Positions 9,469-42,015 of a DNA stretch of 64,000 nt are shown in pieces. The translations under genes and the position numbers were made by a program. The stretch's first letter is position 1; the number at the start of each line of letters is the position of its first letter. Source of the stretch: Minisyncoccia bacterium (GTDB lineage Bacteria > Patescibacteriota > Minisyncoccia > Phycocordibacterales > UBA9973); the NCBI GenBank assembly GCA_049287305.1, contig JBAQFO010000009.1, forward strand, positions 26,259 to 90,258. The letters run 5' to 3'. The notes below the pieces were generated by a model that worked only from the letters and a program-made list of their open reading frames with translations, did not search any database and was not told the origin of the DNA.

Positions 9469-10143
9469 TTATTTAAGTAGAAATCTGAGTGTAGAAACCA
9501 CCCGAATTTTCTTGTATTCGGGAGAACCGGGGTCTTTTTCAGTAATGTCAAAAACTCCCTGATTACCTCTGGATATGCCTCCTATGGAAGAGCCGGAGTC
9601 TTTTGCAAACTGCTCCGCTGACTGGCGGGCATTTTTGATAGCTTCACCGAGCATTTCAGGTTTAACGCTGTTTATGTCAGAGAATTCAAATACGACAGAG
9701 TTCTGGTTCATAGCCACGCCTTGCTTTACCAGAAGCAACGTTTCCTTGGAAGCCGCTTTTACGGCATCAACCTTCTTAGTATAAACAGAAAGCTGGGTGT
9801 TGGAGTTGTATCGGAACAATGCGTCTTTGTATGTATCTTGGTATATATTTACCGGAGCCACGTTTATTTCTGATTCTTCAAATCCTTTTTGCACCAGGAA
9901 AGCCTTGATAGCTGTTATGTTTTTCTCAATATCGGCATATAAAGTGTCCACGTTGTTGGATTTTACTTCAAAGTTCAGAGACCATATTGCCGTATCTGCT
10001 TTTACTATTCTTTCCGAAAGGCCTTTTACCTCCACAAACGAACCCTGGTCCGAGAATCCTCTGGCAGCGACAAAAAATAGAACGGCAAAAACCAGCAAGA
10101 CTCCTCCGATAATCCATGCCCAGTTATTTTTTACGTTTTCCAT
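9469..10143 (-). CDS. SIMPL-domain (DUF541-like) secreted/membrane-anchored protein
   Basis: N-terminal TM helix after the Met at 10143. The ORF-track start at 10191 is a TTG, and the upstream portion is better explained by the small basic ORF. Overall SIMPL-like architecture. Confidence 0.5.
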   Translation of the reverse strand: MENVKNNWAWIIGGVLLVFAVLFFVAARGFSDQGSFVEVKGLSERIVKADTAIWSLNFEVKSNNVDTLYADIEKNITAIKAFLVQKGFEESEINVAPVNIYQDTYKDALFRYNSNTQLSVYTKKVDAVKAASKETLLLVKQGVAMNQNSVVFEFSDINSVKPEMLGEAIKNARQSAEQFAKDSGSSIGGISRGNQGVFDITEKDPGSPEYKKIRVVSTLRFLLK

Positions 10144-10150
10144 ATGATTA

Positions 10151-10282
10151 TTATTTAGCGTTCCTGCTTCTTCGGGTAGCCTTTTTAGCAAGCATCGTCC
10201 TCTTTACCGCCAAGCGCTTTTTGGTCTTGTGGGAACGTCTTGATTTCTTCTTTGGACTAAGTGTTGTGCCTCTTTTTGCCAT
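10151..10282 (-). CDS. Small, very basic 43-aa protein, possibly ribosomal protein bL32-like
   Basis: Translation is MAKRGTTLSPKKKSRRSHKTKKRLAVKRTMLAKKATRRSRNAK. The KKKSRRSH segment resembles the bL32 signature (K..S..RRSH). It is not in the ORF track because it is under 60 aa. Confidence 0.35.
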   Translation of the reverse strand: MAKRGTTLSPKKKSRRSHKTKKRLAVKRTMLAKKATRRSRNAK

Positions 10283-10346
10283 GTGATTGTCTTATGTTGT
10301 TATTTGATAATGTAAGGTTCAGTATAGCAGATAACGCTCTAAAATT

Positions 10347-11105
10347 CTAATACCACGCAAGCTCTACTACTCCTATCTCGGAATTAGCACTGTTCACAAT
10401 TTCTTTGAATTTCGCGATATCACTAAACCCACCCTCTGTCCGGAAGTGGTATGGATAAACTTTTGCCGGCTTGAATGCAAGCACCGCGTCCGCCGCCTCT
10501 TCTACTCCCATGGTATATGGTAGATTCATGGCAACGAAAGCCATATCAATATTCTGCAATCTTTTCATCTCTGGAATACCGCCGGTGTCTCCGGAAATGT
10601 AAACCCGTGTTCCGTCTTTTTCCACGACATAGCCATTACCCCGGCCCTTCGGATGGCGGCTATCGGATGTCTCCGGGAAATTATACATTGGAACAGCTTC
10701 TACGGAGAAACCTTTCTCTTCCGCCTTTTGGCCATTTTTCATAACGTATAGAGTGCCAGGCACGCTATCAGGCAGCATGTCAGCCACGGCTACCGGAGCG
10801 ATAATTATTGTTTTTTCTTTTGAAAGAGCCTTAAGCGCTTCTACGTCCAAATGGTCTCCGTGGATGTCAGTGAGTAAAATTATGTCCGGTTCAGGTTTAC
10901 TCGCAAATTTTTCCGCCCCGACAGGGTCCGTGTATACGGCCATTCCTCCCCAATTCAAAATCATGCTCGCATGCGATATCGGCACAACTTCTGGAGCAGT
11001 TGTTGCGATATTTGTATTATTATCAGGGACGTTCGTTTTGTTACTCATAAGCACGATAAAAATTATAACCGCCATTAATAGTATTAAAATTAAAATTTTC
11101 TTCAT
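10347..11105 (-). CDS. Metallo-beta-lactamase-fold hydrolase with an N-terminal signal/TM segment
   Basis: HGDHLD motif (HxHxDH) and further His/Asp ligands; hydrophobic N-terminus. Confidence 0.6.
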   Translation of the reverse strand: MKKILILILLMAVIIFIVLMSNKTNVPDNNTNIATTAPEVVPISHASMILNWGGMAVYTDPVGAEKFASKPEPDIILLTDIHGDHLDVEALKALSKEKTIIIAPVAVADMLPDSVPGTLYVMKNGQKAEEKGFSVEAVPMYNFPETSDSRHPKGRGNGYVVEKDGTRVYISGDTGGIPEMKRLQNIDMAFVAMNLPYTMGVEEAADAVLAFKPAKVYPYHFRTEGGFSDIAKFKEIVNSANSEIGVVELAWY

Positions 11106-27582: not shown

Positions 27583-28617
27583 CTAGATTATTTTGAAGAA
27601 AAGACGAATTACGGGAAACAAAATGTAATCCCAAATTTGCGGCTTGAAACTCAGAGGGTCAAATAAAGTTGATTCATTTTTCCATCCTTCAATTATTCCT
27701 CGGAGCTTATCCACTGCTTTTTTTTCTTTAAAGAGTATCCCCACTTCGGAATTTAATTCAAAAGACAGAAAATCTAAATTATGGGACCCTAAAATTGCTT
27801 CCTCTTGGTCCACAATCATTGCTTTAGCATGGTTCATGCGGGGCAAGAGAAAAAAGTTAACGCCTAGCTTGGAAAGCTTAAACATAAAAAAGTAAGCCAC
27901 CCGGTCAGGAATGAAATGATTGCCTCTTTGAGGCACTAGCACTTCCACTCGGACCCCGCGGAGAACGGCCTGGTGGAGAATAGCGATAAACCAGTGTTTC
28001 GGCATAAAATATGGAGTAATTAAAACGATGCTGCTCTTGGCTTCATTGACTGTTTTTTTGTAAATTTTTTTCAGAGAATACCGCTGGCTTATCGGAAAAT
28101 TTTCTATCAGCCAAGTGCGTGTCTTGTTCAAAAATATTCTTCTATTCTGCGCAAGGATAAGCGGGTCTTTGCCGCCACAGTCAGCATATACTTTGGCGAA
28201 AGATGAAATAATAGCTAGCACGAGTTTTTTCCCTTTTACCTCCACTGCCAGGTCGTCCCACATACGAGCTACTTGGTGAAAATTAACTCCGCCGATAAAA
28301 GCCAGGCTTTCGTCCACTACAAGGATTTTTCTGTGAATCCTGTGCCTGAATCTGCTGAAGAAATGCACCTCAGTCCCGCTCTGCCGGAGGTCGGCAACGG
28401 CTTCCTTGCTAAGGAGAGAACTGCCGAAAGAGTCCAGCACTACCCTAACCCTTAGCCCTTTTTCCGATTTCTTTTTTAACAAGGTAATAAAATCAAAACG
28501 GCGCATGTCGTCATTGAAAATATACATCTCTAAATATACGGATTCTTTCGCGTCTTTTATTGCTCCATACATAGCTTGCCACGTGGAGTAAGAACTGGCA
28601 AAAAATTTATAACGCAT
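27583..28617 (-). CDS. Phospholipase D / cardiolipin synthase-family protein
   Basis: Two HKD motifs: HRKILVVDESLAFIGGVNF and HAKAMIVDQEEAILGSHNLD. Confidence 0.75.
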   Translation of the reverse strand: MRYKFFASSYSTWQAMYGAIKDAKESVYLEMYIFNDDMRRFDFITLLKKKSEKGLRVRVVLDSFGSSLLSKEAVADLRQSGTEVHFFSRFRHRIHRKILVVDESLAFIGGVNFHQVARMWDDLAVEVKGKKLVLAIISSFAKVYADCGGKDPLILAQNRRIFLNKTRTWLIENFPISQRYSLKKIYKKTVNEAKSSIVLITPYFMPKHWFIAILHQAVLRGVRVEVLVPQRGNHFIPDRVAYFFMFKLSKLGVNFFLLPRMNHAKAMIVDQEEAILGSHNLDFLSFELNSEVGILFKEKKAVDKLRGIIEGWKNESTLFDPLSFKPQIWDYILFPVIRLFFKII

Positions 28618-29060
28618 TCGGTTATTGTAGCAGTAAATGAAGGGGAGTAAAGCTGTACAGGAGTCTCTCCCTCGACTAAAATTTTTTCGTCAAAAAATTT
28701 TGTCTGGGCACCAGCTCGCAAAATTTCCAGCTGGAAATTTATTGCTCCGCTGTTCTCGTCCTGACGCAAGCAAAGCAGTTTGCTTGCTTACGGTCCACGC
28801 AGCAAAAAAGGCCATTTTTCGATGACCTTTTTTCTACTCGTGGACTTAGTATATCAAAGTTGGAACCAATTAGAAAGCTGGGTTTTTCAGGCGTGTGAAG
28901 CGATTAAACGAAACTTGATGTTTAAAAATAACCCTGTTTATGCTCAGTAAAAGATTCTGTTGGTATCACAAGATAGGAATTAAACTTTAGGTACTCTTAC
29001 TATTCCTTACAGATATACACAGACTTACTACTTTTCTCAATTCTATGGTAGACTTTCAAT

Positions 29061-30260
29061 ATGAGTAATACATTTTTAAATCCTTTTAGACCAGGTGCGG
29101 GTCAACCTCCTCCATATTTAGCAGGGCGTGAGAAAGAAAAAGAAGCCTTTGAAAAATTGCTTGCACAAGATGTTGTCATTAAAAATATGATTTTAACAGG
29201 ATTAAGAGGAACAGGCAAAACAGCTCTACTAGAAACTTTGAAACCTGTCGCACTTGCTAATAAATGGCTTTGGGCTGGAGCTGACCTTTCAGAATCAGCA
29301 AGCGTGTCAGAGAATGCGATTGCAATTAGATTGTTGACCGACCTTTCGGTTGTAACATCTCAATTATTAAAAGGAACAAAGGAGAAAGCTGGTTTTTCTT
29401 CAGGAGAAGAAAAAGTTTCTATAGATTATGCAAGTTTGGTTCAATATTATACAAGTCAACCTGGACTTGTTTCTGATAAATTAAAAGCAACGTTAGAATA
29501 TATTTGGTCTTACATAAAGGATGCACCAAGTATAAAAGGAATTGTTTTTGCTTATGACGAAGCTCAAAACATGAGTGATAGTGCAAAAGATAAAGAATAT
29601 CCTCTGTCTGTATTATTAGAAGTTTTTCAATCATTACAAAGAAAAAACTATCCTTTCCTTTTAGTGCTTGTTGGTCTTCCAACTTTATTTCCAAAATTAG
29701 TTGATGCAAGAACATATTCAGAAAGAATGTTTAACGTTATTGAATTAAAAAGTTTATCTCCTTCTGATAGTAAAGATGCAATAGTTAAACCGACCCAAAA
29801 ATCTGGCTGCCCTGTTACATTTGATGATAATTCAGTTACTTTGATAACAAAAGAATCAGGAGGATATCCTTATTTTATACAATTTGTTTGTAGGGAAACT
29901 TTCGATAGCTGGATAGCACAAATAGCACAAAATATTGAAAAGCCAAGTGTTCCACTCACAGAAATAGTAGCTAAATTGGATACAGAGTTTTTTGCTGCAA
30001 GATGGAATCGTGCATCAGACCGCGAAAGAGAACTTCTGTCTGTAATAGCATCACTCGAAAATTGTCAGGAAGAATTTACTATAAAAGAAGTAGCCGAACA
30101 ATCAAAAAAGGTTTCAGAAAAACCTATAACGGATAACCAAATTAACCAAATGTTTGTAAATTTAGCAAGTGATGGTTTTATATATCGAACTAGATATGGT
30201 AAATATACATTTGGTATTCCACTTTTAGGTGAATATATCAAACGACAGGAGATACTTTAG
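29061..30260 (+). CDS. AAA+ ATPase of the archaeal-ATPase (PF01637-like) family
   Basis: N-terminal NPFRPGAGQPPPYLAGREKE signature and a Walker A GLRGTGKT. Confidence 0.6.
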   Translation: MSNTFLNPFRPGAGQPPPYLAGREKEKEAFEKLLAQDVVIKNMILTGLRGTGKTALLETLKPVALANKWLWAGADLSESASVSENAIAIRLLTDLSVVTSQLLKGTKEKAGFSSGEEKVSIDYASLVQYYTSQPGLVSDKLKATLEYIWSYIKDAPSIKGIVFAYDEAQNMSDSAKDKEYPLSVLLEVFQSLQRKNYPFLLVLVGLPTLFPKLVDARTYSERMFNVIELKSLSPSDSKDAIVKPTQKSGCPVTFDDNSVTLITKESGGYPYFIQFVCRETFDSWIAQIAQNIEKPSVPLTEIVAKLDTEFFAARWNRASDRERELLSVIASLENCQEEFTIKEVAEQSKKVSEKPITDNQINQMFVNLASDGFIYRTRYGKYTFGIPLLGEYIKRQEIL

Positions 30261-30402
30261 CCTGCTAAACAGGCTGATAACAGTCAAGAAAGGTTCAAGA
30301 TACATAGCGTTTTAAACGCATGGAAAACGTTAGAATTGCCACTGCTGAACAGCGTAATAACAGCGAGAGGTTCTATGCTGATAAACAGCATAAATAACAG
30401 CA
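30261..30402. repeat. Iteron-like degenerate direct repeats (GCTGAtAACAGc, five or more copies)
   Basis: gctaaacaggctgataacag / gctgaacagcgtaataacagcg / gctgataaacagcataaataacagca, seen directly downstream of the ATPase gene. Confidence 0.4.
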
Positions 30403-30624
30403 CACTCATCCTTCTTGACATGTTTGATAAATAGACCAAATAATGTAATAATTTTGCTATAACTTAATAAAAGTAGCCTAAACCTTTAGAAATAGAGGCA
30501 TGGTGAATAGACCCGTGAAGGTTAAAGAACTCCTAGTCAGAGTTCGCCTTCACGGGCTGTATGTGGAAACACATATATCTGATTAGGAGCTTTTTGCGTT
30601 TTAACCCTATTAACAAAAAATTAT

Positions 30625-31647
30625 ATGAAAAAATATCTAGTTGGTTTACTATTTCTAATAATTATTACTCCCTCTATTGCTCTAGCTTCTTGGTGGAATC
30701 CTTTTAGCTGGTTTCGTAAAAATCCTATTGATGCACCAACGGTTACTACGCCAGTTGTTCAACCAACAATAGCTACCCCCACAACTCCTCCAGTAGTTGA
30801 GAAAAAAAATGAGATTCCCAAACCAGTAATTAAATCAACTCCAAAGCCTCAGACCGTAACTTCTTCTAATAATTTACAAAGTGTCCAGGAAGCTGTTAAG
30901 CAAATTGATTTTCACATTAAAGATTATCAAAAGTTTACACCGTTCTTAGAGGAGAAAATCACTTTAGTAAACACATACAAAGACAAATATCTCAAAAAAA
31001 CAACAGACATAGACGAATCAAGCGGTGCTTTGTATTTGGCTACCTCTCTTAAACTCACACTTAATTTTCAGCAATTGATTGATGCCATGAAATTAAAGAT
31101 TGCTGAATTGCAAAAAGCCCGAACAGAAATTCTTACTAAAAATACTGTTGATAAATCAGTTTGGAGTGAAAGCAAGAATCAGGAATATTTGCAATTCTCA
31201 ACAAATACAGCAAATACTTATAAAGTTGTGAGCAAAGAGTGGAGTGACAATATGACCGATATTCTAGAATTTTTAAAGCTAATTTCCCCTCAAGGTTTTT
31301 CGAAATCTTCAGGTTCAGTCGGACAGCGTGACCCATACGTTCAGGAACAATTGGATTATTACGATAAGCTCGAAGAGGTCAGAGCGCAAGTTAAGGCAGA
31401 AATTGAAAGTGGAGGAGGCTATGCCTCGGATAGTAACGTTTATTCTATCGCTTCAAAGAGGTTAAAAGATATGGGTGTCAAACCTCCAATATCTCCATAT
31501 GGTGGCTATATAAACCCTACAGGTGGGTATACTTCGGTTATGTGCCATTCTCTCGGTAGTGGCTTTGATTGCTATGGTTCTGACGGCGCAAGAATACAAA
31601 GTAACCAGATTCCAGGCAGTAGTAGCTTCCAAATTAATTCGTGGTAG
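30625..31647 (+). CDS. Hypothetical secreted protein
   Basis: Signal peptide MKKYLVGLLFLIIITPSIALA; no recognisable domain. Confidence 0.45.
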   Translation: MKKYLVGLLFLIIITPSIALASWWNPFSWFRKNPIDAPTVTTPVVQPTIATPTTPPVVEKKNEIPKPVIKSTPKPQTVTSSNNLQSVQEAVKQIDFHIKDYQKFTPFLEEKITLVNTYKDKYLKKTTDIDESSGALYLATSLKLTLNFQQLIDAMKLKIAELQKARTEILTKNTVDKSVWSESKNQEYLQFSTNTANTYKVVSKEWSDNMTDILEFLKLISPQGFSKSSGSVGQRDPYVQEQLDYYDKLEEVRAQVKAEIESGGGYASDSNVYSIASKRLKDMGVKPPISPYGGYINPTGGYTSVMCHSLGSGFDCYGSDGARIQSNQIPGSSSFQINSW

Positions 31648-31680
31648 AATCTAGATTGATTAATTGATTCTTATCAAAAC

Positions 31681-31932
31681 ATGCAAGGAGGATATAGAGA
31701 AAATGCAGGAAGAAAAAAAGGGTTTAGTGCAGTTGAAGCTGAGAAAGCAAGAGAGTTTATAGTTGAACAAGTGAATGCCTCTTTAGAGCCAATAGTTTCG
31801 AGTCTTATTGATAGAGCAAAAAAGGGTGATATAAGAGCTACTCAAATTTTATTTGATAGAGCTTATGGAAGACCCCTTACTCCAATAGAGAATGTAGGAG
31901 AAACCCCCATGATGATTATGATAGATAGATAA
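31681..31932 (+). CDS. Small hypothetical protein (island cargo)
   Basis: 83-aa ORF; the next ORF follows closely. Confidence 0.3.
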   Translation: MQGGYRENAGRKKGFSAVEAEKAREFIVEQVNASLEPIVSSLIDRAKKGDIRATQILFDRAYGRPLTPIENVGETPMMIMIDR

Positions 31933-31941
31933 AAAAGGTTT

Positions 31942-32262
31942 ATGAATGATGATTCGAAGAAGAAAATTTTGGAAGAGTGGAATTCTAAAAAACTCGAGAA
32001 GCAATTCCCATGGCAACGACTTGTTTTTGATAATTTCAATGAGCTTTATCGGTTTTTAAAAGAACAATCAAGTGAACAAGGTAAGCAAAATAGGAAAAAT
32101 AAATTAGACAGGTTTGAGGAAGCTAATATCCGTTTCCCTAAGTCTTTCATGGGAATGGGGAATGTAAAACATAGAAAGAAAGAAGGAAAAAATTTAATTA
32201 CAACTTCACTTATGTTTTTACAAAGAATCAGGGCATTAAAAAAGATTGACAAAGAAAATTAG
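31942..32262 (+). CDS. Small hypothetical protein (island cargo)
   Basis: 106-aa basic ORF. Confidence 0.3.
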   Translation: MNDDSKKKILEEWNSKKLEKQFPWQRLVFDNFNELYRFLKEQSSEQGKQNRKNKLDRFEEANIRFPKSFMGMGNVKHRKKEGKNLITTSLMFLQRIRALKKIDKEN

Positions 32263-32568
32263 AGTAATATAATGAGAATACAATTAAATACTAATGGTTC
32301 TCGAGTCTTCGACCTAAACAGCTATCTACAGAAAATAACCTAGGGTAAGTAATTAGGTAAGGCGATAAGACAGAGCAGGTATAAGACCAATTTGGCAACC
32401 GTATATCAACGTAGAAAGCATTTTGCTTCCTTTGTTGGTAGAGACGGTCGAACTACTACAAACGAGGCACTAAATGTGTCTCGTTTTCTCTTTTATTTGT
32501 AGGAAATCATGGTGAAATGTCCATTTATTTGAGGGACAGGTCAACACCATGAACCTGCCTTCAGATAA

Positions 32569-32862
32569 GTGGATTTTTGTTTCTTAATCTCTAACTTAAA
32601 TTATATGCGAAGTATAGAAGCAAACTATAAAAAGATTCAAGCTCGCAATCCAAATCTTGGGACACATCCTTGCTTGGTTCAAGCGGTTAGATATAAAAAG
32701 TTTTCAAGGAAATCTTTAGTTAAAGCTTTTAACGATTTGATGCCTGAAAGTGAATATGCACAGGACGAGAAAAAAGAGCTAATTGACTATCTAGAGAATC
32801 AAACGAACCTAGCTGAGGAGGGCGAAATTAGGGCTAAAAATGCCTCAGGAACAGCCAAATAA
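32569..32862 (+). CDS. Small hypothetical protein (island cargo)
   Basis: 97-aa ORF. Confidence 0.25.
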   Translation: MDFCFLISNLNYMRSIEANYKKIQARNPNLGTHPCLVQAVRYKKFSRKSLVKAFNDLMPESEYAQDEKKELIDYLENQTNLAEEGEIRAKNASGTAK

Positions 32863-33009
32863 CAGCATGATAAGCATTGAGCGGTGTAAAGAAATACTAG
32901 GCGAGAAAATGTCAGATTCTGAAGTTGAAAGACTTAGGGAAGCTCTTTACGCTATGGTCGAATCAATAATGGATAATTATTTTGAAGGATTTAATGGTAA
33001 AATAGATAT

Positions 33010-34782
33010 ATGCAAAAAGCAGTCATTTATTGCCGAGTATCCTCTATTAAGCAAAGCACAGAAGGACACGGACTAGATTCGCAGGAGCATCGTTGTAGAG
33101 AGTATGCAAAACAAAAGGGCTATGAAGTTGTAAAAGTCTTCAGAGATAGTTTCACAGGCGGTGGAGACTTTCTAAATAGACCAGCAATGTCTTCTTTGCT
33201 TGGTTATCTCGATAAAGAACCTGCAACGAACTTTGTAGTTGTCTTTGACGATTTAAAAAGACTTGCTCGCGATACTGTTTTTCATCTCAAATTAAGAAGG
33301 GAATTTACTGCTAGAGGAGCAAAAGTAGAATGCTTAAACTTTACTTTTGAAGAAACTCCCGAAGGACAATTTATTGAAACCATTTTGGCTTCACAGGGAG
33401 AGCTAGAAAGAAAACAAAATCAAAGACAAGTAATTCAGAAAATGAAAGCCCGTCTTGAAAATGGATATTGGACTTTAGTTGCTCCTGTCGGGTATAGAAT
33501 GATAAAAAATCCTATTCATGGAAAAATACTAACAAGAGTTGAACCAGAAGCTAGTATTGCAAAGGAAGCCCTTGAAGGATTTGCCAGTGGAAGATTTGAA
33601 AATCAGGTTGAAGTCCAAAGTTTCTTACAATCTAAAAAGTTTCGTGGGATTACAAAATACAATTTAAGTTTGGTTAAAAGATTACTTACAAGGTCAGTAT
33701 ATGCTGGCTTTGTAGAATATGAAAAGTGGAATGTAAGTAGAAGGGTTGGTCATCATGAGCCGATAATTAGTTCTGATACATTTCAACAGATTCAGGATAA
33801 ACTAAATGGAAAAATAAAAATCTACTCAAGAAAAGACAATAACAAGGAATTTCCTTTGAGGGGTTTTATTTTATGTTTAGACTGTTGTAAACCCATGACA
33901 GCAAGTTGGACTACTGGCAGAAGTGCTAAACATCCTTATTATCATTGTAAAACAAGAGGATGTCAGCTTAAGGGTAAAAGTATAAAGAGAAAGGAAATGG
34001 AGGATAGATTTGAGGATATACTACGCTCCATAAAGCCTAAAGCGAAGACCTTGAATCTTACAAAAGAAATTCTACTTGATATTTGGAATAAGAGACTTGC
34101 CGATGTAGATAACCTTAAAAAGAATCATGAAAATAATTTAGATGAAGTTCGTGCAAAGATAAGAATGTTTTTAGACAGATTATCTCAAACTAAAAATCCT
34201 AGCTTGATAAAAACTTACGAAAAGGAAATTGAAAAACTCACAAATGAGGAGCAAGTTTTAGAAAATCAGAGCCAAGTCATGCGAGGTACCAAGCCAGATT
34301 TTGGAACCGCCCTTGATATTACTTTTGATTTTCTAAAAAATCCTTATGCTTATTGGGCAAAAGATGATTTGAAGTCAAAGCATTTAGTTTTGAAATTGGT
34401 TTTTTCCGATAGATTAACTTATGAAAGAGGAGTAGGGTTTCGAACCGCTAATCTAGCTTTACCATTAAGGGTATTTGAGTTAAACGAACTAGGTGATTCT
34501 TCTGATGTGGTGTCATTATATCATTTGCTCGAACTTTTTTTGAGCGAGAATGAATCGTCCCGCCACTGCCTCGCAAAGCCTCGGCAACCCCGAAAGAAAA
34601 ACACTCCTTGCATTTCTGATTTGGCGGGGGTGAAATTTCTTTTGGAAAAGGAAAGGGTGTTTTTCTTTCGGGGTTCTGCCTTCCAAGTATTCAGGCAGGT
34701 GGCGGAACAATGCGGACGAAGTTTTGCAAAAACTATTTTTTGGGGAAAGGATTTTGCAAAACTTCGGCTCATTTGTTTTTGA
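33010..34782 (+). CDS. Large serine recombinase (resolvase catalytic domain + recombinase domain + zinc ribbon)
   Basis: AVIYCRVSSIKQ catalytic-serine motif, a VFDDLKRLARD motif and a CLDCCKPMT...YYHCKTRGC zinc ribbon. The last ~90 codons read into inverted repeat IR1-L, so the true stop is uncertain. Confidence 0.8.
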   Translation: MQKAVIYCRVSSIKQSTEGHGLDSQEHRCREYAKQKGYEVVKVFRDSFTGGGDFLNRPAMSSLLGYLDKEPATNFVVVFDDLKRLARDTVFHLKLRREFTARGAKVECLNFTFEETPEGQFIETILASQGELERKQNQRQVIQKMKARLENGYWTLVAPVGYRMIKNPIHGKILTRVEPEASIAKEALEGFASGRFENQVEVQSFLQSKKFRGITKYNLSLVKRLLTRSVYAGFVEYEKWNVSRRVGHHEPIISSDTFQQIQDKLNGKIKIYSRKDNNKEFPLRGFILCLDCCKPMTASWTTGRSAKHPYYHCKTRGCQLKGKSIKRKEMEDRFEDILRSIKPKAKTLNLTKEILLDIWNKRLADVDNLKKNHENNLDEVRAKIRMFLDRLSQTKNPSLIKTYEKEIEKLTNEEQVLENQSQVMRGTKPDFGTALDITFDFLKNPYAYWAKDDLKSKHLVLKLVFSDRLTYERGVGFRTANLALPLRVFELNELGDSSDVVSLYHLLELFLSENESSRHCLAKPRQPRKKNTPCISDLAGVKFLLEKERVFFFRGSAFQVFRQVAEQCGRSFAKTIFWGKDFAKLRLICF

Positions 34783-34872
34783 ATTCGGAAGTCGCAAATG
34801 GAAAAGGAGGGGTTTGGGGAGGAATTTTCCATTTGCTCCTCTTTTTGTTTTGGCGAAATTCGGGGCGGACAA
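34507..34872. repeat. IR1-L: 366-bp inverted repeat, ~96% identical to 38536-38901
   Basis: A direct comparison of this segment with the reverse complement of 38536-38901 shows about 15 mismatches over 366 bp. It also contains an internal 20-bp palindrome pair (ccccgaaagaaaaacac / gtgtttttctttcgggg). Confidence 0.85.
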
Positions 34873-34899
34873 TGCGAAAAAAGTACAAAAGAAACAATT

Positions 34900-35052
34900 T
34901 TACTTTTTTCGCAAATCTGCCCAAAGTGCCATTGCCACTAAGACCAAGAATATTACCACTTCCAACCAGTTTTGTTTCTGGACAGCTTCAACAACAGCTG
35001 AGCCAAAAAGAATTACTATTACCGCTAAACTTGTGAATTTTAGGTCTTTCAT
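34900..35052 (-). CDS. Small single-TM protein
   Basis: About 50 aa from the Met of MKDLKFTSLAVIVILFG. It is the last gene of the 7-gene minus-strand operon. Confidence 0.3.
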   Translation of the reverse strand: MKDLKFTSLAVIVILFGSAVVEAVQKQNWLEVVIFLVLVAMALWADLRKK

Positions 35053-35057
35053 GTGAT

Positions 35058-35233
35058 TATTGATTGCGTTTCTGCAATGCCAGCATGCCATAAGCTATGA
35101 TTGCTCCGGAAACTGTAGCCGTGAGAGTGATTTGCGGAAGATTAATCGGCATCTGTAGAATCCAGTATCCTAGCAAACCGACTGCGGATATAATCACAAA
35201 CTCAAGAACAAAGTACTGTAAGAATTTTTTCAT
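35058..35233 (-). CDS. Small two-TM protein (58 aa; not in the ORF track)
   Basis: Translation is MKKFLQYFVLEFVIISAVGLLGYWILQMPINLPQITLTATVSGAIIAYGMLALQKRNQ. It is hydrophobic and co-directional with the operon. Confidence 0.3.
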
Positions 35234-35270
35234 AAGATGATTATAACTAATTTATTTTTTGGCGACGACA

Positions 35271-35846
35271 TTAAACTAAATGATACCACTTTCGCTCTGA
35301 TATTTTTCTTAATTTATCTACTGCTGGTGTATTGTACAGGTATTCAGTACTTTTCGAAATATCCGTAAGAATCCCTACTGTAATTTGTTCGTTTGGATTT
35401 GGAACTTGCACAAGCTGTGCAAGTTGTTGTTGAGTTAATCCTTGTGGTAAATTCTGTGCCGTTGCTGTTGAGATAGGCACCGCCTCAAATCTTTGATTTA
35501 ATTTTTGACTAGAACGTTCAGCTATTAAAAAATCGATATACGTTGCTTGCGAGTAAAATCTGCTAATCATGTCAATTTCAGTTTCTTTCAAATCCTTGAT
35601 AAAAAGATGTATGTTGTCGTTCCAACTGTTGGTTGGCAGTAATTTTGATGACAAGGAGTACCCGCGTGTACCATGCTCCGAATTTCTGATCTGTTGCTCC
35701 GCGTAGCGGATTTCTTGAAGTATTAAACTAGCCGCATCTCTCCTTTTGTCCACTCTTGCTTTTATATAAAGGTAAATAGCTAAAAAGCCAACAACAAATG
35801 TTACCACCCCGATATTGTCATTTAAGAATTGAAAAATAATCATCAT
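35271..35846 (-). CDS. Hypothetical protein with an N-terminal TM anchor
   Basis: 191 aa. Its start is 2 nt after the upstream gene, so it is probably translationally coupled. Confidence 0.4.
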   Translation of the reverse strand: MMIIFQFLNDNIGVVTFVVGFLAIYLYIKARVDKRRDAASLILQEIRYAEQQIRNSEHGTRGYSLSSKLLPTNSWNDNIHLFIKDLKETEIDMISRFYSQATYIDFLIAERSSQKLNQRFEAVPISTATAQNLPQGLTQQQLAQLVQVPNPNEQITVGILTDISKSTEYLYNTPAVDKLRKISERKWYHLV

Positions 35847-35848
35847 AA

Positions 35849-36775
35849 TTACTCTGTTCTTAACTCCTTTTGCCTAATCCACTTCGGACCATCAGGAGTT
35901 AGTACTAAAACATCAATTGGGCCACCTACGCCCGGCATGTCACCCGGGTCAGCTTGAATGCCGTCTGAAAAACGTTGAATCGCTGATGTTGTCTGTATCG
36001 CAAGCACAGAAAAATCGATTGCGTCTTGGAGGGGCATTGAGCCCCAGTTGATAGCATATTCAAGACTATTCAATTGTTTTTCAATTTCGGCTTGACCTTT
36101 TGATTTGATAGCTTCGTTTACAAATGGTGTATTAAAAATTCGCGGGTCCCATCCTTTGACAATTCGAGACACAACGTCAGTCTGCCCAATCCAATTGGCG
36201 CCGTACTCCATTCCACGTTGGTTGCTGTCGCGCCTTTTTACATTCTCGCCAGGGACATAAACATTATAAACTTCGTGCGAGCCGTCGATGTTATAGCCAG
36301 CAACAAACAAAACTAGCCCGTCTATACCTCCAGCACCATCCTTTATATTTCCCGCTTTGTCCTTGATTTTGAACTTGACATTGTATTGTTCCTTTTTGAT
36401 CTCCACAATTTCAAACCCTTGCTTTGTAAAATTATCTTTTATTTGATCCGGCAACTTATCTAGTTGTTCTTGCCAATTTAATTTTTTATCAAATAGAAAA
36501 TGTAATTTGTCCGCAACTTCTTTGACTGAAAGTTTATCAACCTCCACTTCTCTCTTAAACTGCTCAATAAACTTGCTGATATTTTTTGGTATTCCATTCT
36601 CTTGCAAAAATGCAAGTCCGGTAGTTGCAACGCCGATTCGATTATTAATTAAAAATAGTTTTGATGCAGAATCAGAGCCAATTCTAGAAACACCTTTTTG
36701 GTTGCGATAAGATTGACGGCTATCTGCCGCTAATATCATGCCCTCTGGAGTTGTTGTATTTATTGCTAAGCTCAT
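35849..36775 (-). CDS. Proteasome beta-subunit-like Ntn hydrolase (T1 family; HslV/Anbu-like), orphan
   Basis: MSLAIN|TTTPEGMILAADSRQS aligns with the Thermoplasma beta propeptide and TTTVGI...ATERR region (Thr1, Asp17). SKLFLINNRIGVATTGLA aligns with KKLFQIDTYTGMTIAGL (Lys33). GGIDGLVLFVAGYNIDG...VYVPG aligns with LLVGGID...SIDAAGG. The C-terminal AIDFSVLAIQTTSA...GGPIDVLVLTPDG aligns with VDLVIRAISAA...SGGMIDVAVITRKDG. Confidence 0.55.
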   Translation of the reverse strand: MSLAINTTTPEGMILAADSRQSYRNQKGVSRIGSDSASKLFLINNRIGVATTGLAFLQENGIPKNISKFIEQFKREVEVDKLSVKEVADKLHFLFDKKLNWQEQLDKLPDQIKDNFTKQGFEIVEIKKEQYNVKFKIKDKAGNIKDGAGGIDGLVLFVAGYNIDGSHEVYNVYVPGENVKRRDSNQRGMEYGANWIGQTDVVSRIVKGWDPRIFNTPFVNEAIKSKGQAEIEKQLNSLEYAINWGSMPLQDAIDFSVLAIQTTSAIQRFSDGIQADPGDMPGVGGPIDVLVLTPDGPKWIRQKELRTE

Positions 36776-36785
36776 AATTTAAAAA

Positions 36786-37385
36786 TTATTTTTCCCACAC
36801 GATATGCCCATTTATACCATGTTTTTCGTAAGTTTCCAAGACATCAGCACAAAATTTTATCAACTCTTCGTTCTTTTCACTTTTGGCTAATTCATAAAGA
36901 CGGATAAACATTTTCTTTCCCGTTTCGGTTTGCTTCAAATTCTTTTTGATAAAATTATGTTGTGCGCATAATGTCTGGCCGTTCTCAATCGTAGCTTCGC
37001 CGCCAAAATCTTTTGGCTTTATATGGTCAATGTGTAATTCAACGCCGTCTTTTTTGCCTCTACCGCAAATGACGCATTTGTATCCGTCTCTTTTAAGAAT
37101 TGCTTCTTTTTGTGAGGCTGTAAAATCCTCCAACTCTCTTTTATACGCTTTAGCCGGGTCATATTTATAAACTCCTTTAGAAATTTTGATCAAAAAGCCG
37201 CTTTGAGCTAGGTGGCGAATGGCTCTATCAGGGTCACGAAAAACATTTCCGGTCCTTTTCGTGTAAGTTGATACTACCCAATCAACAACTTCCGGATGTT
37301 TTATATCTCGGTTTGGATTTTTCTTAAAGAACTCAACGATGAGGTCTTTTTGAACATTATTATTTTTCTTGATGTCTTTTTTCAT
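36786..37385 (-). CDS. HNH nuclease (candidate restriction endonuclease of the R-M unit)
   Basis: CVICGRGKKDGVELHIDHIKPKDFGG...NGQTLCAQHN HNH motif with an N-terminal winged-helix-like region. It lies directly downstream of the methyltransferase. Confidence 0.6.
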   Translation of the reverse strand: MKKDIKKNNNVQKDLIVEFFKKNPNRDIKHPEVVDWVVSTYTKRTGNVFRDPDRAIRHLAQSGFLIKISKGVYKYDPAKAYKRELEDFTASQKEAILKRDGYKCVICGRGKKDGVELHIDHIKPKDFGGEATIENGQTLCAQHNFIKKNLKQTETGKKMFIRLYELAKSEKNEELIKFCADVLETYEKHGINGHIVWEK

Positions 37386-37390
37386 ATTTT

Positions 37391-38218
37391 TTACATTAAA
37401 CTTGATTGATTTACTTTTGCTTCATTGCGTAAGCGGTCTATCGCTATGTCGCAATACTTTTCATCAATATCAATTCCGATTCCTTTTCTGCCATGCAAAT
37501 AAGAGGCAATCAGCGTTGAACCGCTACCCAAAAATGGATCTAAAACAGTATCGCCAACAAAACTAAATAATTTTATACATCGTCTCGGTAATTCAATGGG
37601 AAATGGCGCAGGATGTCCGCCCGCACCTTTTTTACTTTGGCCGTTGAATGTCCAAACTCCATTTGTCCAATCCATGAATTCTTTTTTTGTAATATCATTT
37701 ACCCTACTTGCACCAGTTTTCTTCCAACTGTCTTTATACAAAACTAAAATCAATTCAACCGGAGCGATAACATACGGGGCGGAGGCGGACATAAACGAAC
37801 CCCAAGCGGTACGACGAGATATATTTCCCTCGTTCCAAATAATTGTTGAGTGATATTTCCAGCCAATGTCTTTTGCAATTTTTGTAATATCCGCACCAAC
37901 TGATTTTTGCCCACCTTTATTTTTATCAAGTGGAATGTTAAGCAAAAATCGCCCTTCATTTTTTGATAATTCAAAACATTTTTTGATCCATTTTTGAGTA
38001 AATTCCAAATAATCTTCGTACGTTAAATCGTCAGCGTGAGAATTGTAATGAATATCAACATTGTAAGGTGGCGAGGTAACAATCAAATCAATTGAATTAT
38101 TTGGAATTGCAGAAATTTTCAAAATGTCATCTTTGTATATCAAAATATTCTCCGCTTCAAAATGTGGAGCGTTAGTCTTTTTTTCTTTTGTATTTTTTGC
38201 GGTTATGGTATTTAACAT
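37391..38218 (-). CDS. DNA methyltransferase (beta-class N4-cytosine/N6-adenine)
   Basis: Motif IV SPPY (LIVTSPPYNV) precedes motif I (VLDPFLGSGST), which is the beta-class order. Confidence 0.8.
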   Translation of the reverse strand: MLNTITAKNTKEKKTNAPHFEAENILIYKDDILKISAIPNNSIDLIVTSPPYNVDIHYNSHADDLTYEDYLEFTQKWIKKCFELSKNEGRFLLNIPLDKNKGGQKSVGADITKIAKDIGWKYHSTIIWNEGNISRRTAWGSFMSASAPYVIAPVELILVLYKDSWKKTGASRVNDITKKEFMDWTNGVWTFNGQSKKGAGGHPAPFPIELPRRCIKLFSFVGDTVLDPFLGSGSTLIASYLHGRKGIGIDIDEKYCDIAIDRLRNEAKVNQSSLM

Positions 38219-38222
38219 ATTT

Positions 38223-38423
38223 TTATTTAAACAATTCTGCCGTAGAAACGCCGAGTGCTTTTGCTATCTTATCTAGTGTATCAACAGTAGGGTTTGGACT
38301 TTCACCAGTCTCTATTTTAACGACAGTATTCAAAGCAATATCAGCATCTTTCGAGAGGCGATCTTGGGAAATGCCTTTTTTCTGTCTTAATTTGCGGATG
38401 TTTTCGCTAACGGTATTTGCCAT
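38223..38423 (-). CDS. HTH XRE-family regulator (R-M controller C-protein-like)
   Basis: 66-aa helix-turn-helix protein (IRKLRQKKGISQDRLSKDADIALNTVVKIETGE). It is the first gene of the operon, 4 nt upstream of the methyltransferase. Confidence 0.65.
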   Translation of the reverse strand: MANTVSENIRKLRQKKGISQDRLSKDADIALNTVVKIETGESPNPTVDTLDKIAKALGVSTAELFK

Positions 38424-38535
38424 AATGTTTTGACTTTGATAAACTACTATAATACACTACTTATGATATACTTATCTCAACTGGTGTAATTCAATGATAG
38501 CAAAAACTATGAAAACAATCAATCTTAATCTTAAC

Positions 38536-38901
38536 TTGTCCGCCCCGAATTCCCCCAAAACAAAAAGAGGAGCAAATGGAAAATTCCTCCCCAAACCCCT
38601 CCTTTTCCATTTGCGACATCCGAATTCAAAAAAGATTAGCCGAGTGTTTTGCCAAATCCTTTCCCCAAAAAATAGTTTTGCCAAAACTTCGTCCGCATTG
38701 TTCCGCCACCTGCCTGAATACTTGGAAGGCAGAACCCCGAAAGAAAAACACCCTTTCCTTTTCCAAAAGAAATTTCACCCCCGCCAAATCAAGAAAGCAA
38801 GGAGTGTTTTTCTTTCGGGGTTGCCGAGGCTCTGCGAGGCAGTGGCGGGACGATTCATTCTCGCTCAAAAAAAGTTCGAGCAAATGATATAATGACACCA
38901 C
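38536..38901. repeat. IR1-R: 366-bp inverted repeat partner of 34507-34872
   Basis: See IR1-L. It abuts IR2-L, so the junction reads ...gacacca|ccaaacg. Confidence 0.85.
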
Positions 38902-39029
38902 CAAACGAAACTTGTTCGGAATTAAGAAAGCGGAGCGATTTTGCGGTAGCCAAAATCGCGCTATCATTTTTTTCAAAACCCTTTCCGCCTACGGCGGAAG
39001 CCGTGAATTCCCAAAGCTCCCCCCAATTG
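38898..39029. repeat. IR2-L: ~132-bp inverted repeat partner of 40441-40575
   Basis: The reverse complement of 40441-40575 matches with only a few mismatches. The outer end begins ccacca. Confidence 0.8.
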
Positions 39030-39034
39030 AAATC

Positions 39035-40639
39035 ATGAAAGACCTCAAACCAAAATATTTTCTCTACGCTCGTAAGAGTACAGAAGACGATGACCACCAA
39101 ATAATGTCTATTGAGGCACAGCTTTTTGAATTACATGAATACGCGCGTAGAGAAAATCTTGAAATTCTTGAGGAATTTCAAGAGTCGAAAAGCGCAAAGA
39201 AACCGGGTCGTGAACTATTTAACGAAATGATGGCCCGCATTGAGAAAATGGACGGCGTAGGTATCCTCGCGTGGCATCCTGACCGTCTTGCTCGCAATAG
39301 TGTTGACGGCGGGCGCATCATTTACGCAGTAGACACGACCAAAATAGTTTCTTTGCGTTTTCCGACATTTTGGTTTGAGCCAACTCCGCAAGGGAAATTT
39401 ATGTTGCAGGTGGCGTTCGGACAGAGTAAATATTATTCCGACAATCTTGTTGAGAATATTACTCGTGGTATCCGCCAAAAAGTCCGTCGAGGCGAGTGGT
39501 TGGTGCGCGCTCCCTTTGGCTATGTGAATAATCCGAAAACGAGAAATATTGAACCTCACCCGACTAAATCTCGCATTGTAGTAAAAGCGTTTGAAGAATA
39601 CGCCAAAGGGACGCACACCCTCGGCACTATCGCCGACTTTTTGGCGGATCACGGCGTGAGTACGAAGGGAACGCCACCTGCCAAAGCTTCCGTCGCTCGT
39701 ATGCTCTCCAATCGTGTCTATCTCGGTTTTACTTTTCACAAAGGCGAGTATTACGACGGAAGCTTTGCGCCAATTATTTCTCCGACACTGTTTGAAGCAG
39801 TCCAAAAAATGCTTGCGAAAAAATCTCGTCCTCGCGTGCAAAAAGTGCCAAACCATTTTCCCTTTGCACAATTTGCTCGGTGCGGAGAGTGCGGAAGTAT
39901 GATTACGGCTCAATATGCGACAAATCGTTTTGGCACAAAATATACTTACTATCGCTGTACCAAAAAGAAAGGTGTTTGTCGTCAGCCGTATCTATCTTCT
40001 TCCGCACTCATTTCGCAAGCAAAAAATCTGCTTCAATCAGTGTCGCTTCCTCTTTCAGAAATTGAGAACATGGAAAAACAAATTGACCTATGGGACAAAG
40101 AATCAATTTCAGAAAGAGGAAGTGCTGCCCAAAATCTTAAAACCAAACTTTCCGAAACGAAGGAGAAGCTGGACAAGCTCGTTTCCATTTATCTTGACGG
40201 CGATATTGAACGCGAGATTTACTTACAGCGAAAAGACCTTCTCCTTCGTCAGAAAGCAAAGTTTGAGGAAAGTTTTAAAGATTTTGGACAACAGAGAAAA
40301 AATTGGGTCGAACCCTTGCGGAGTTTCGTTTTGTCTTTGAGAGAAGCCGTTATTTTGGAAAAAAGCGAAAACTATTTCGCATGGAAAGAGTTTTTCCAAA
40401 AAATCGGCTCGAACCCTATTCTCAAAGACAAAACGCTTTCATGCAATTGGGGGGAGCTTTGGGAATTCACGGCTTCCGCCGTAGGCGGAAAGGGTTTTGA
40501 AAAAATTGACAGCGCGATTTTGGCTCCCGCAAAATCGCTCCGTTTTCTTAATTCCGACAATGTTTCGTTTGGTGGACCGTACAGGACTCGAACCTGCCAC
40601 CCCCTCATTGCAAATGAGGTGCTCTACCAGATGAGCTAA
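39035..40639 (+). CDS. Large serine recombinase (second copy, divergent from the first)
   Basis: YARKSTEDD catalytic-serine region, a WHPDRLARN motif, and a zinc ribbon CGECGS...YYRCTKKKGVC followed by coiled-coil-like sequence. The ORF reads through IR2-R and into the tRNA-Ala complement, so the real stop is uncertain. The ATG at 39035 is chosen as the start. Confidence 0.75.
   Translation: MKDLKPKYFLYARKSTEDDDHQIMSIEAQLFELHEYARRENLEILEEFQESKSAKKPGRELFNEMMARIEKMDGVGILAWHPDRLARNSVDGGRIIYAVDTTKIVSLRFPTFWFEPTPQGKFMLQVAFGQSKYYSDNLVENITRGIRQKVRRGEWLVRAPFGYVNNPKTRNIEPHPTKSRIVVKAFEEYAKGTHTLGTIADFLADHGVSTKGTPPAKASVARMLSNRVYLGFTFHKGEYYDGSFAPIISPTLFEAVQKMLAKKSRPRVQKVPNHFPFAQFARCGECGSMITAQYATNRFGTKYTYYRCTKKKGVCRQPYLSSSALISQAKNLLQSVSLPLSEIENMEKQIDLWDKESISERGSAAQNLKTKLSETKEKLDKLVSIYLDGDIEREIYLQRKDLLLRQKAKFEESFKDFGQQRKNWVEPLRSFVLSLREAVILEKSENYFAWKEFFQKIGSNPILKDKTLSCNWGELWEFTASAVGGKGFEKIDSAILAPAKSLRFLNSDNVSFGGPYRTRTCHPLIANEVLYQMS
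40441..40575. repeat. IR2-R: inverted repeat whose outer 6 bp are the CCACCA 3' terminus of tRNA-Ala
   Basis: Seen in sequence: ...gtttcgtttggtgg|accgtacagg, where the reverse complement of tggtgg is the discriminator A plus CCA of the tRNA. Confidence 0.8.
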
Positions 40640-40645
40640 CGGCCC
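40570..40645 (-). tRNA. tRNA-Ala(UGC), CCA encoded
   Basis: GGGCCGT-TA-GCTC-ATCTGGTA-GAGC-A-CCTCA-TTTGCAA-TGAGG-GGGTG-GCAGG-TTCGAGT-CCTGT-ACGGTCC-A-CCA. The G3:U70 Ala identity pair is present. Confidence 0.85.
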
Positions 40646-40653
40646 AATATTTG

Positions 40654-40890
40654 CTATACTAGCACCTTTTTTAAAAACTTTCTACCTGCTGCTGACTTTA
40701 AATACAATTCTCTTTCTCTAGCTGTCTTAAAGTCATTAATCTCTTCTTTGTAGACAAGTTCCAACTCTTTCGTTTTACTTGTCGTTTTCGTATGACCGCT
40801 TTTATGTTCTTGTAACCTTCTTTTTATATCATTCGTAAATCCTTTATAAACTTTATTATTTTTATCTTTTAACACATAAACTGTGTACAT
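40654..40890 (-). CDS. GIY-YIG nuclease-domain protein (YhbQ/UPF0213-like)
   Basis: MYTVYVLKDKNNKVYKGFTNDIKRRLQEH: GIY...YIG plus Arg and Glu, in a 78-aa protein. Confidence 0.65.
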   Translation of the reverse strand: MYTVYVLKDKNNKVYKGFTNDIKRRLQEHKSGHTKTTSKTKELELVYKEEINDFKTARERELYLKSAAGRKFLKKVLV

Positions 40891-41735: not shown

Positions 41736-42015
41736 AAAATTTTTTCTAATTAATTCTAATAATTCAGACCCACCTTTACATTATACCATACTTAGTATAA
41801 AAATGCAAGTAGTTAACTGCCCTTCTTTTTTACCCTTAAATTATACACTAAAATAGCACACAAAACAAAACCCCGCCTTGCGGCGGGGTTTTGCGGCACT
41901 TATGTTGTTTACGATAAATGTGAGAACACCTCACACTCACAAGACGAGTATAGCATATATCAAATAAAAAAGCAAGCCCCACAGAAAAATCCTCTCTTTC
42001 GAGAGGATTTTTCAT

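Follow-up and report, generated by a model that had tools for sequence, protein, structure and literature searches.

Large serine recombinases (LSRs), for example those of the elements phiC31, Bxb1, SPbeta (SprA) and A118, are valued as strictly one-way tools that need just two short sites. Here we analyze a 64-kb stretch of DNA from a Minisyncoccia bacterium (hereafter the window), in which the gene for an LSR, Rec2, runs into a tRNA-Ala gene and lies among two pairs of long inverted repeats, IR1 and IR2, close to the gene for a second LSR, Rec1. We judge it about 70% probable that positions 34511-40575 of the window constitute a single 6,065-bp element, inserted by its own Rec2 at the 3' end of tRNA-Ala and keeping an internal second attP site. 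The Rec2 element resembles the LSR elements named above in its Resolvase, Recombinase and zinc-ribbon domains, in its short crossover core, in an outer motif that sits farther out, by 5-6 bp, on the arm of the element than on that of the target, and in an insertion that can be read against an empty site. Unlike them, it possesses the putative second, inverted internal attP, long repeats that evolve in concert around integrase and cargo and an open reading frame (ORF) without a stop codon of its own; its integrase is at most 31% identical to phage enzymes, and it has neither phage or conjugation genes nor an identified directionality factor.

The Hin and Gin invertases are proteins of ~190 amino acids (aa) with a C-terminal helix-turn-helix (HTH) domain that act on ~26-bp sites, and both orientations of their segments coexist. 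The Rec2 system is alike in that a serine recombinase gene lies within a segment bounded by inverted repeats, but differs in the size of the enzyme (534 aa), its large-serine-type domains, repeats of 130-430 nt and a near-fixed orientation. Elements of the IS607 family encode a small serine recombinase with an N-terminal DNA-binding domain and have no terminal inverted repeats, whereas Rec2 has an N-terminal catalytic domain and large-serine C-terminal domains, and its element has long inverted repeats. The yeast 2-micron plasmid, with the tyrosine recombinase FLP and its target FRT, is a free, autonomously replicating circle with two inverted repeats, each containing a target site. The circle predicted for the Rec2 element would similarly comprise two unique segments parted by a ~0.5-kb inverted repeat with, in each copy, a site for a recombinase that one of the segments encodes; the Rec2 system differs in its serine enzyme and its integration at a tRNA gene, no origin or replication gene was found in it, and its circle has not been seen.

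The tycheposons of Prochlorococcus are likewise small cargo elements at tRNA and tmRNA genes that form arrays and carry defense or niche genes (bioRxiv 10.1101/2020.12.28.424599). They differ from the Rec2 family in their host phylum, in their enzymes, which are tyrosine recombinases in 910 of 937 cases (97%), and in the replication genes present in many of them; in the paper that describes them the term 'inverted repeat' occurs only in a reference-list entry, and no such layout is given (bioRxiv 10.1101/2020.12.28.424599). In the Thermococcales, the archaeal tyrosine integrase of the tRNA-targeting element pTN3 is reported to be linked to chromosomal inversions (PMC5495485). The two systems are alike in a chromosome apparently rearranged between tRNA-related sites, as at the loci described below where a Rec2-type integrase lies between two tRNA genes, and they differ in the tyrosine enzyme of the one and the serine enzyme of the other.

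Full-text literature searches found no description of the layout reported here, in keeping with an earlier reading of the window from its sequence (the original prediction), which had called it a non-standard architecture. Its closest known counterparts are ordinary LSR integrative elements and tycheposons, with the 2-micron plasmid and Hin-type switches comparable by analogy only. The Rec2 family is apparently undescribed and is widespread in ultra-small Patescibacteria, which have tiny genomes and few known mobile elements.

A single insertion at the 3' end of tRNA-Ala

All coordinates below are positions in the window, and L-numbers are labels of compared loci or contigs (Table 1). We denote the half-sites a (the 3' end of Rec1), x (the start of IR1), y (the end of IR2) and t (the tRNA 3' end), and the repeat arms X (IR1-L), X' (IR1-R), Y' (IR2-L) and Y (IR2-R), a prime marking an inverted copy.

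Each feature listed in the original prediction lies where it was placed, and the predicted dimensions of the repeats (366 bp at ~96% identity for IR1, ~132 bp for IR2) agree with those measured by alignment. The IR1 arms (34507-34872 and 38536-38901) are 95.9% identical over 366/367 nt with a single 1-nt indel (blastn E = 3e-170); a repeat finder breaks them into pieces of 256 and 97 nt. The IR2 arms (38898-39029 and 40444-40575) are 94.7% identical over 132 nt (E = 4e-56), and past a 4-nt indel the match continues to 38898-39041 and 40436-40575 (144/140 nt), thereby taking in the ATG of Rec2. IR1-R and IR2-L share the four nucleotides CCAC at 38898-38901, the core of a junction (J2) that has x' on its left side and y' on its right. 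The outer six nucleotides of IR2-R, CCACCA, are also the last six of tRNA-Ala(tgc), as the predicted tRNA-derived terminus of IR2 had it, and ccacca begins IR2-L as well. No further copy of either repeat occurs in the window. IR1-L is highly structured (-142 kcal/mol, z = -6.7), and IR1 matches no known RNA: an Rfam search of both strands of 32-42 kb returns the tRNA and otherwise weak, chance-level matches only.

The original prediction had pointed to related genomes as a source of an empty tRNA-Ala site, and three metagenome contigs (L088-L090) provide one that lacks both repeat-flanked modules. In these contigs a Rec1 homolog directly abuts tRNA-Ala (...GATGTGG/ACCGTACAGG). Window segments 32601-34510 and 40572-40655 match L088 5564-7501 and 7498-7580, respectively, which are contiguous in L088. 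Because the homology is contiguous across 34510/40572, the occupied and empty sites differ by one insertion, 34511-40575, with GTGG at both junctions and the crossover within this 4-nt core. After the discriminator base of tRNA-Ala, L088 has CAT (7498-7501) and the window CCA (40570-40575), the encoded CCA end being supplied by the element.

The left junction, J1, reads gatGTGGTGtcat, and the right junction, J3, reads tttGGTGGaccg. The reverse complement of J2, tttGGTGGTGtcat, is composed of the left half of J3 and the right half of J1. The order in the window is a/x ... x'/y' ... y/t, and since the reverse complement of J2 is y/x, it is exactly the joint expected from excision by a/x times y/t. 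At the level of sequence comparison, both the insertion and the logic of its junctions are thus established.

We propose that Rec2 inserted the element at the 3' end of tRNA-Ala by a crossover within GTGG, the other side of the target being the 3' end of Rec1, which would itself be the integrase of an older element at the same tRNA gene. The inserted DNA would comprise two modules, the integrase bracketed by IR2 (Y) and the cargo bracketed by IR1 (X). IR1 and IR2 would meet at J2, an inverted copy of the excised-circle junction and hence a putative second attP held in the integrated element. The essential features of such an element would be three sites that share half-sites, with J2 persisting as the carrier of the integrase promoter and operator.

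Table 1. Coordinates of the features of the window discussed in the text.
Feature	Position	Strand	Remarks
Older conventional LSR element, outside the repeat system	28844-34510 (5,667 bp)	+	Rec1 at its right end
Rec1 ORF, large serine recombinase	33010-34782 (590 aa)	+	native part to ~34510; tail 34511-34782 in IR1-L
J1 core GTGG, proposed attL of the Rec2 element (Rec1 3' end / x)	34507-34510		L088 homology breaks here and restarts at 40572
IR1-L (X)	34507-34872	+	first ~36 nt past the core are the conserved x half-site, TGTCATTATATCATTTGCTCGAACTTTTTT
Cargo segment between the IR1 arms	34873-38535 (3,663 nt)		genes all on the minus strand
Small ORF	34900-35052	-
Small ORF	35057-35233	-
191-aa protein	35271-35846	-	no family match
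308-aa protein	35849-36775	-	weak proteasome/Ntn-hydrolase-like N-terminus
HNH endonuclease	36786-37385	-	REase_II match, E = 6e-6
Type II methyltransferase	37391-38218	-	MTase_II, E = 1e-95
XRE-HTH (66 aa)	38223-38423	-	Control_protein match, E = 1e-11
IR1-R (X')	38536-38901	-	inverted copy of IR1-L
J2, internal inverted copy of the circle junction y/x, attP-like	38862-38927	-	conserved family-wide
Extended -10-like element TGATATAAT within x'	38885-38893	+	directed over the core towards Rec2
IR2-L (Y')	38898-39041	+	entire Rec2 leader including the ATG
Terminator-like hairpin in Y'	38935-38959	+
Rec2, large serine integrase of the element	39035-40639 (534 aa)	+
IR2-R (Y)	40436-40575	+	final ~45 Rec2 codons; hairpin 40514-40538 inside
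J3 core GTGG, proposed attR (y / tRNA 3' end)	40572-40575
tRNA-Ala(tgc), integration target	40570-40645	-	B'-type half-site

The layout recurs in a large family

Relatives of Rec2 number in the thousands (more than 550 in each of two collections), and those that are named all come from Patescibacteria (Paceibacteria, Nomurabacteria and others), across many lineages. We analyzed 164 loci whose integrases share 57-99% amino-acid identity with Rec2. IR2 is detected in 122 of the 164, most of the remainder being cut by contig ends; it is 115-145 nt long (median 126 nt), with a median arm identity of 99%. At ~86 loci the left arm is flanked by a conserved x, and the right arm by the 3' end of a tRNA or tmRNA gene on the opposite strand. 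The target tRNAs are those for Ala, Glu, Ser, Leu, Lys, Val, Arg, Pro, Met and Tyr, and tmRNA genes are targets as well. Enzymes with 93% identity or more are found next to different tRNAs (Ala variants, Leu, Val) and a tmRNA-like 3' end.

IR1 is found in ~34 of the 48 loci with sufficient upstream sequence (about 70%), where it encloses 1.1-7.7 kb. Its arms are 120-426 nt long and 97-100% identical, the right one overlapping IR2-L at the core, and beyond the first ~35-45 nt (x) its sequence differs between elements. In every IR1-bearing locus IR1 abuts IR2 at the core. A relaxed repeat search recovered eight loci in which the contig begins within the left arm or x is lost. The left IR1 arms of L146 (4121-4331) and L147 (2426-2636) are without the outer ~33 nt (core and x half-site), and these truncated arms look like immobilised copies.

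The architecture recurs across the family: the same layout is present in more than 100 independent assemblies, including a complete chromosome (CP060229.1, L079) and contigs of 516 and 637 kb. It is true that short-read assemblies are interrupted at these repeats, and the original prediction had worried that mis-joining might have made them. The assemblies, however, come from different projects, and the arm pairs of the window differ at 7 and 15 positions, unlike a duplication artefact; the chance that the layout is an assembly product is negligible.

The family also bears on whether the locus is one element or two. An insertion sequence (IS)-like serine-recombinase transposon with 132-nt terminal repeats might simply lie beside an unrelated, repeat-flanked restriction-modification (R-M) cassette. 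The integrase module is indeed IS-like in its terminal repeats, its promoter-like left end and its ORF that enters the right repeat; moreover, 14 loci have the module without IR1, and near-identical modules adjoin different cargo. Yet the empty site lacks both parts, the conserved x always accompanies the module and also begins IR1, and the two repeats meet at the core wherever both are present. Furthermore, on one strand the core reads CCAC at the left end of the integrase module and GTGG at its right end. Overhangs must pair, and with opposite central-dinucleotide polarity at the two module ends a serine recombinase is confined to inverting what lies between and is unable to excise it. The earlier suggestion of an IS-like element beside a repeat-flanked cassette therefore stands as a description of the integrase module and fails as an account of two separate units; we regard such independence as very unlikely and retain the single element inserted by Rec2.

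Half-site geometry of element and target

The x half-site is conserved family-wide as the core, ~16 nt, TTTGC(G/T)CGAAC and a T-run. In large serine integrases the zinc-ribbon-domain motif lies ~5 bp closer to the center in attB than in attP half-sites (PMC11722253). Across the Rec2 family the CGAA motif, which belongs to the T-loop TCGAAC in the tRNA, is nearer the core in the tRNA than in x, by 6 nt in 48/62 loci and by 5 nt in 7/62. Judged by this spacing, x has the geometry of a P-type and the tRNA that of a B-type half-site. The a side is not conserved across the family, and it seems to be the tRNA half through which the target is recognized. On the y side, GTTTC is conserved close to the core, and a weaker TCnGAA is found at a greater distance.

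Rec1 belongs to an older neighboring element

Rec1 and Rec2 both exceed the cut-offs for PF00239, PF07508 and PF13408 (Resolvase, Recombinase and Zn_ribbon_recom) and so are two large serine recombinases, as originally proposed, although they are only 24% identical. The homologs of Rec1 are ~519 aa long and cover 85% of its 590-aa ORF, the match ending at the start of IR1-L; on this comparison the tail 34511-34782 is read-through into IR1-L produced by the insertion. That both recombinase ORFs continue in frame into the adjoining repeat had been correctly noticed, and for Rec1 this would be a by-product of the later insertion. Rec1 homologs in L088 (6001-7560) end within the antisense strand of tRNA-Ala.

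At the other end of the Rec1 element lies its predicted attL, a GTGG core at 28840-28843 followed by a P'-type arm (28844-28887) that starts ACTTAGTATATCAAAGTTGGAACC. This arm is 90.6% identical to L088 894-925, which is located after the 3' end of another LSR gene. The GGAACC motif of the arm sits 5 nt further out than in the tRNA. The element has a low GC content (0.34-0.38). No inverted repeats were found in the Rec1 family at the same target, nor in the element 28844-34510. Since Rec1 has an attL of its own, tRNA-Ala would bear a tandem array, namely an ordinary LSR element followed by the repeat-bearing one. The view that the two recombinases are interlocked is accordingly abandoned: with its own attL, a homolog that abuts tRNA-Ala in L088-L090 and a family free of inverted repeats, Rec1 stands outside the repeat system.

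Several smaller observations concern this neighborhood. We considered whether the 3' end of Rec1 is a tRNA remnant and rejected the idea, as ARAGORN and Infernal find none there and the T-loop-like motif fits an att half-site better. An inverted 10-nt copy of the tRNA-Ala 3' end (TACGGTCCAC) occurs at 28789-28798, 42 nt left of the attL core of the Rec1 element; ~0.1 matches are expected by chance in the window. In L001 and L002 X is fused to a Rec1 homolog, and downstream of this homolog an element with an IS110-family transposase (L001 11800-13141, L002 2693-4034) interrupts X between the positions that correspond to window 34808 and 34810. Finally, in L007, whose Rec2 is 99% identical, a homolog (9863-10918) of the window gene 27583-28617 adjoins the 5' end of tRNA-Ala. 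In the window that gene lies on the 3' side of tRNA-Ala, left of the Rec1 element, so that the tRNA is inverted relative to the gene between L007 and the window.

Concerted evolution, orientation and the internal site

Within a locus the repeat arms are 97-100% identical, whereas orthologous arms of related loci are 80-93% identical, and arm identity peaks beside the core. Arms that are alike within loci yet diverged between loci imply that some copying process keeps them alike, and these comparisons demonstrate concerted evolution of the arm sequences. Gene conversion between sites that share a half-site would maintain the similarity of the long repeats and would probably lengthen them. The arms in the window (95-96%) are the most diverged among the IR1-bearing loci, which suggests that this element is an old copy. 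As a common age clock, the divergences of IR1 and IR2 were tried and rejected, being only weakly correlated (rho = 0.34, p = 0.10).

The original prediction offered nested invertons as one of two readings. The segments are adjacent rather than nested, and in a revised form of that idea Rec2 (or Rec1) would flip both the R-M cassette and its own gene, giving phase variation. Long, near-identical inverted repeats do flank both segments, a recombinase gene is contained in one of them, in the manner of hin, and concerted evolution implies that the arms interact. Orientation is nevertheless near-fixed, with ~86 standard loci against one of the L013 type, described below, and two or three flanked by tRNAs on either side. 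Where two loci share cargo, its orientation agrees in 6/6 cases, including pairs 8-15% diverged, and is inverted in 0/6; the first gene of the cargo and the integrase gene are divergent at almost all loci. (A cargo strand difference apparent between L045 and L112 proved to be only a difference in ORF calling.) In addition, the cargo regulator and its upstream region lie inside the segment, so that flipping would not switch the cargo, and the canonical rules for a large serine integrase permit attP x attB, not these pairs. That many assemblies break at the repeats is expected of any repeat exceeding the assembler k-mer. L013, in which the integrase module stands in the opposite relation to tRNA-Ala and X, can be read as an inversion but also as a tandem array plus an event between J2 and a tRNA. 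Free phase-variable inversion is thus not supported, and we consider adjacent invertons unlikely; in the single element that we favor, in-situ inversion would be rare, with no running phase switch.

The internal site nonetheless appears to be used. At occasional loci J2 is joined to the 3' end of a tRNA gene. In L035 (9780-11604) the integrase module is enclosed by tRNA-Leu(caa) and tRNA-Leu(gag), and in L011 (183-2000) by two tRNA-Ala(tgc) genes, in both cases with the tRNA 3' ends facing the module; L013 and L038 have tRNA-Ala at the inner (upstream) side of the integrase. In L035 and L013 the tRNA join falls exactly at the core, which points to site-specific recombination as the process that joined J2 to a second tRNA. 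That a tRNA is found at the inner site of these three or four loci suggests recombination at this site, and L035 and L011 would imply chromosomal rearrangement through it. L013, where X is on the far side, might represent either a flipped isomer or a portion of an array. Another locus, L091, is an array of two family members with the joint y_old/x_new; it was rejected as a free circle with x on both sides, because its two X types differ.

The Rec2 gene and its leader

The closest solved structure to Rec2 is that of the SPbeta integrase (E = 6e-8). The Rec2 ORF has no stop codon of its own and terminates within the antisense of tRNA-Ala. Throughout the family, 117 of 122 ORFs are open through Y and over the core, and the positions of their stops in the flank vary; the ORF would run past the crossover point into whatever adjoins. 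The coding signature of Y is weak, with mismatches distributed over the codon positions as 27/27/46% in Y versus 22/15/63% in the body of the gene. Integrase ORFs that have no stop of their own and end in tRNA antisense occur in both the Rec1 and Rec2 families.

IR2-L supplies the whole leader of Rec2. The family alignment has TAnnAT within x', a few bases from the core and directed into Y', at the same place as TGATATAAT in the window. On our reading x' at J2 would carry the Rec2 promoter and probably also an operator for autoregulation. No consensus structure was predicted for the Rec2 leader from 42 loci, the alignment being too poor around the hairpin, and hairpins were therefore counted sequence by sequence instead. 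Of 83 distinct family arms, 61 have a hairpin 30-42 nt from the core, compared with 3% of shuffles, and the hairpin sequences are unrelated. The hairpin of the window is terminator-like on both strands. Its copy in Y lies ~100 nt ahead of the stop, so that transcripts might be non-stop.

Cargo

Cargo genes were annotated by Pfam and PADLOC matches, with gene calls made on a 100%-identical contig (L087). The cargo of the window is a predicted type II R-M system, with a methyltransferase, an endonuclease and a possible controller, and agrees with the 3.6-kb R-M operon originally described between the IR1 arms. Cargo across the family is heterogeneous and includes methyltransferases, restriction systems, AdoMet synthetase, GTP cyclohydrolase II, a class II tRNA synthetase, transporters and defense-like ATPases; no replication genes occur among 55 cargo proteins, nor were transfer genes found. 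At 21 of 52 loci, the window included, an XRE-HTH gene starts 226-497 nt from the core, divergent from the integrase and beside unrelated cargo. This gene may belong to the element backbone, as a regulator or directionality factor, rather than being an R-M controller. L087 (Logan SRR28062879) corresponds to window 34843-38581 at 100% identity and ends inside both IR1 arms. An exact-protein look-up of the window methyltransferase returned only this 3.7-kb contig, which holds no orientation information.

Discussion

The Rec2 family departs from the textbook LSR layout in a putative second, inverted attP, in concerted repeats around both integrase and cargo, in an integrase ORF with no stop of its own, and in near-identical enzymes that insert beside a wide variety of tRNA and tmRNA genes. 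The tRNA-flanked loci suggest that the internal site is active; were this so, such elements would give rise to chromosomal inversions and to cassette traffic in tiny genomes.

Several points weigh against a single Rec2-inserted element with an internal attP. The contigs with the empty site belong to another species (79% nucleotide identity), not to a sister strain. Among the 164 loci there is no excised circle, that is, no case of x on both sides of one module pair, and no recombination directionality factor was identified, the sole recurrent second gene being that for the XRE-HTH protein. Whether the y half-site is of P or B type is ambiguous. The -10-like element falls below the threshold of a two-hexamer scan, and the promoter is assigned by resemblance to the consensus only. 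Fourteen loci with 3.5-10 kb of upstream sequence show no second copy of X or x, and a Hamming scan for a distant second x in these solo loci gave nothing above controls; this means that cargo can be longer than 10 kb, that attL often disappears or that the model is incomplete. No relatives were found in the viral contigs searched with one protein and a 17-sequence profile. Lastly, conservative serine recombination can neither create nor homogenise inverted duplications, which leaves the origin of the repeats unexplained.

A bolder extension, which we hold to be doubtful, is that the family consists of two-attP 'flip-flop' elements whose free form is a small 2-micron-like circle run by a large serine integrase. 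If so, the integrase would act after integration without a directionality factor, by way of the retained internal attP. It could invert its own gene or the cargo and swap cassettes between elements, a natural form of recombinase-mediated cassette exchange, and by recombination with other tRNA genes it could turn around parts of the host chromosome. The stop-less ORF would then yield a different C-terminal tail in each state.

For annotation, recombinase ORFs that enter tRNA genes are real features and not errors. Many related contigs begin or end at the repeats, so these elements systematically break Patescibacteria assemblies, and the frequent breaks at such loci are thereby accounted for. 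Elsewhere in the window, a structured stretch on the minus strand (41859-41984) has sub-threshold Rfam matches to several leader and small RNA families, the best being the rnk leader (38 versus a threshold of 55 bits).

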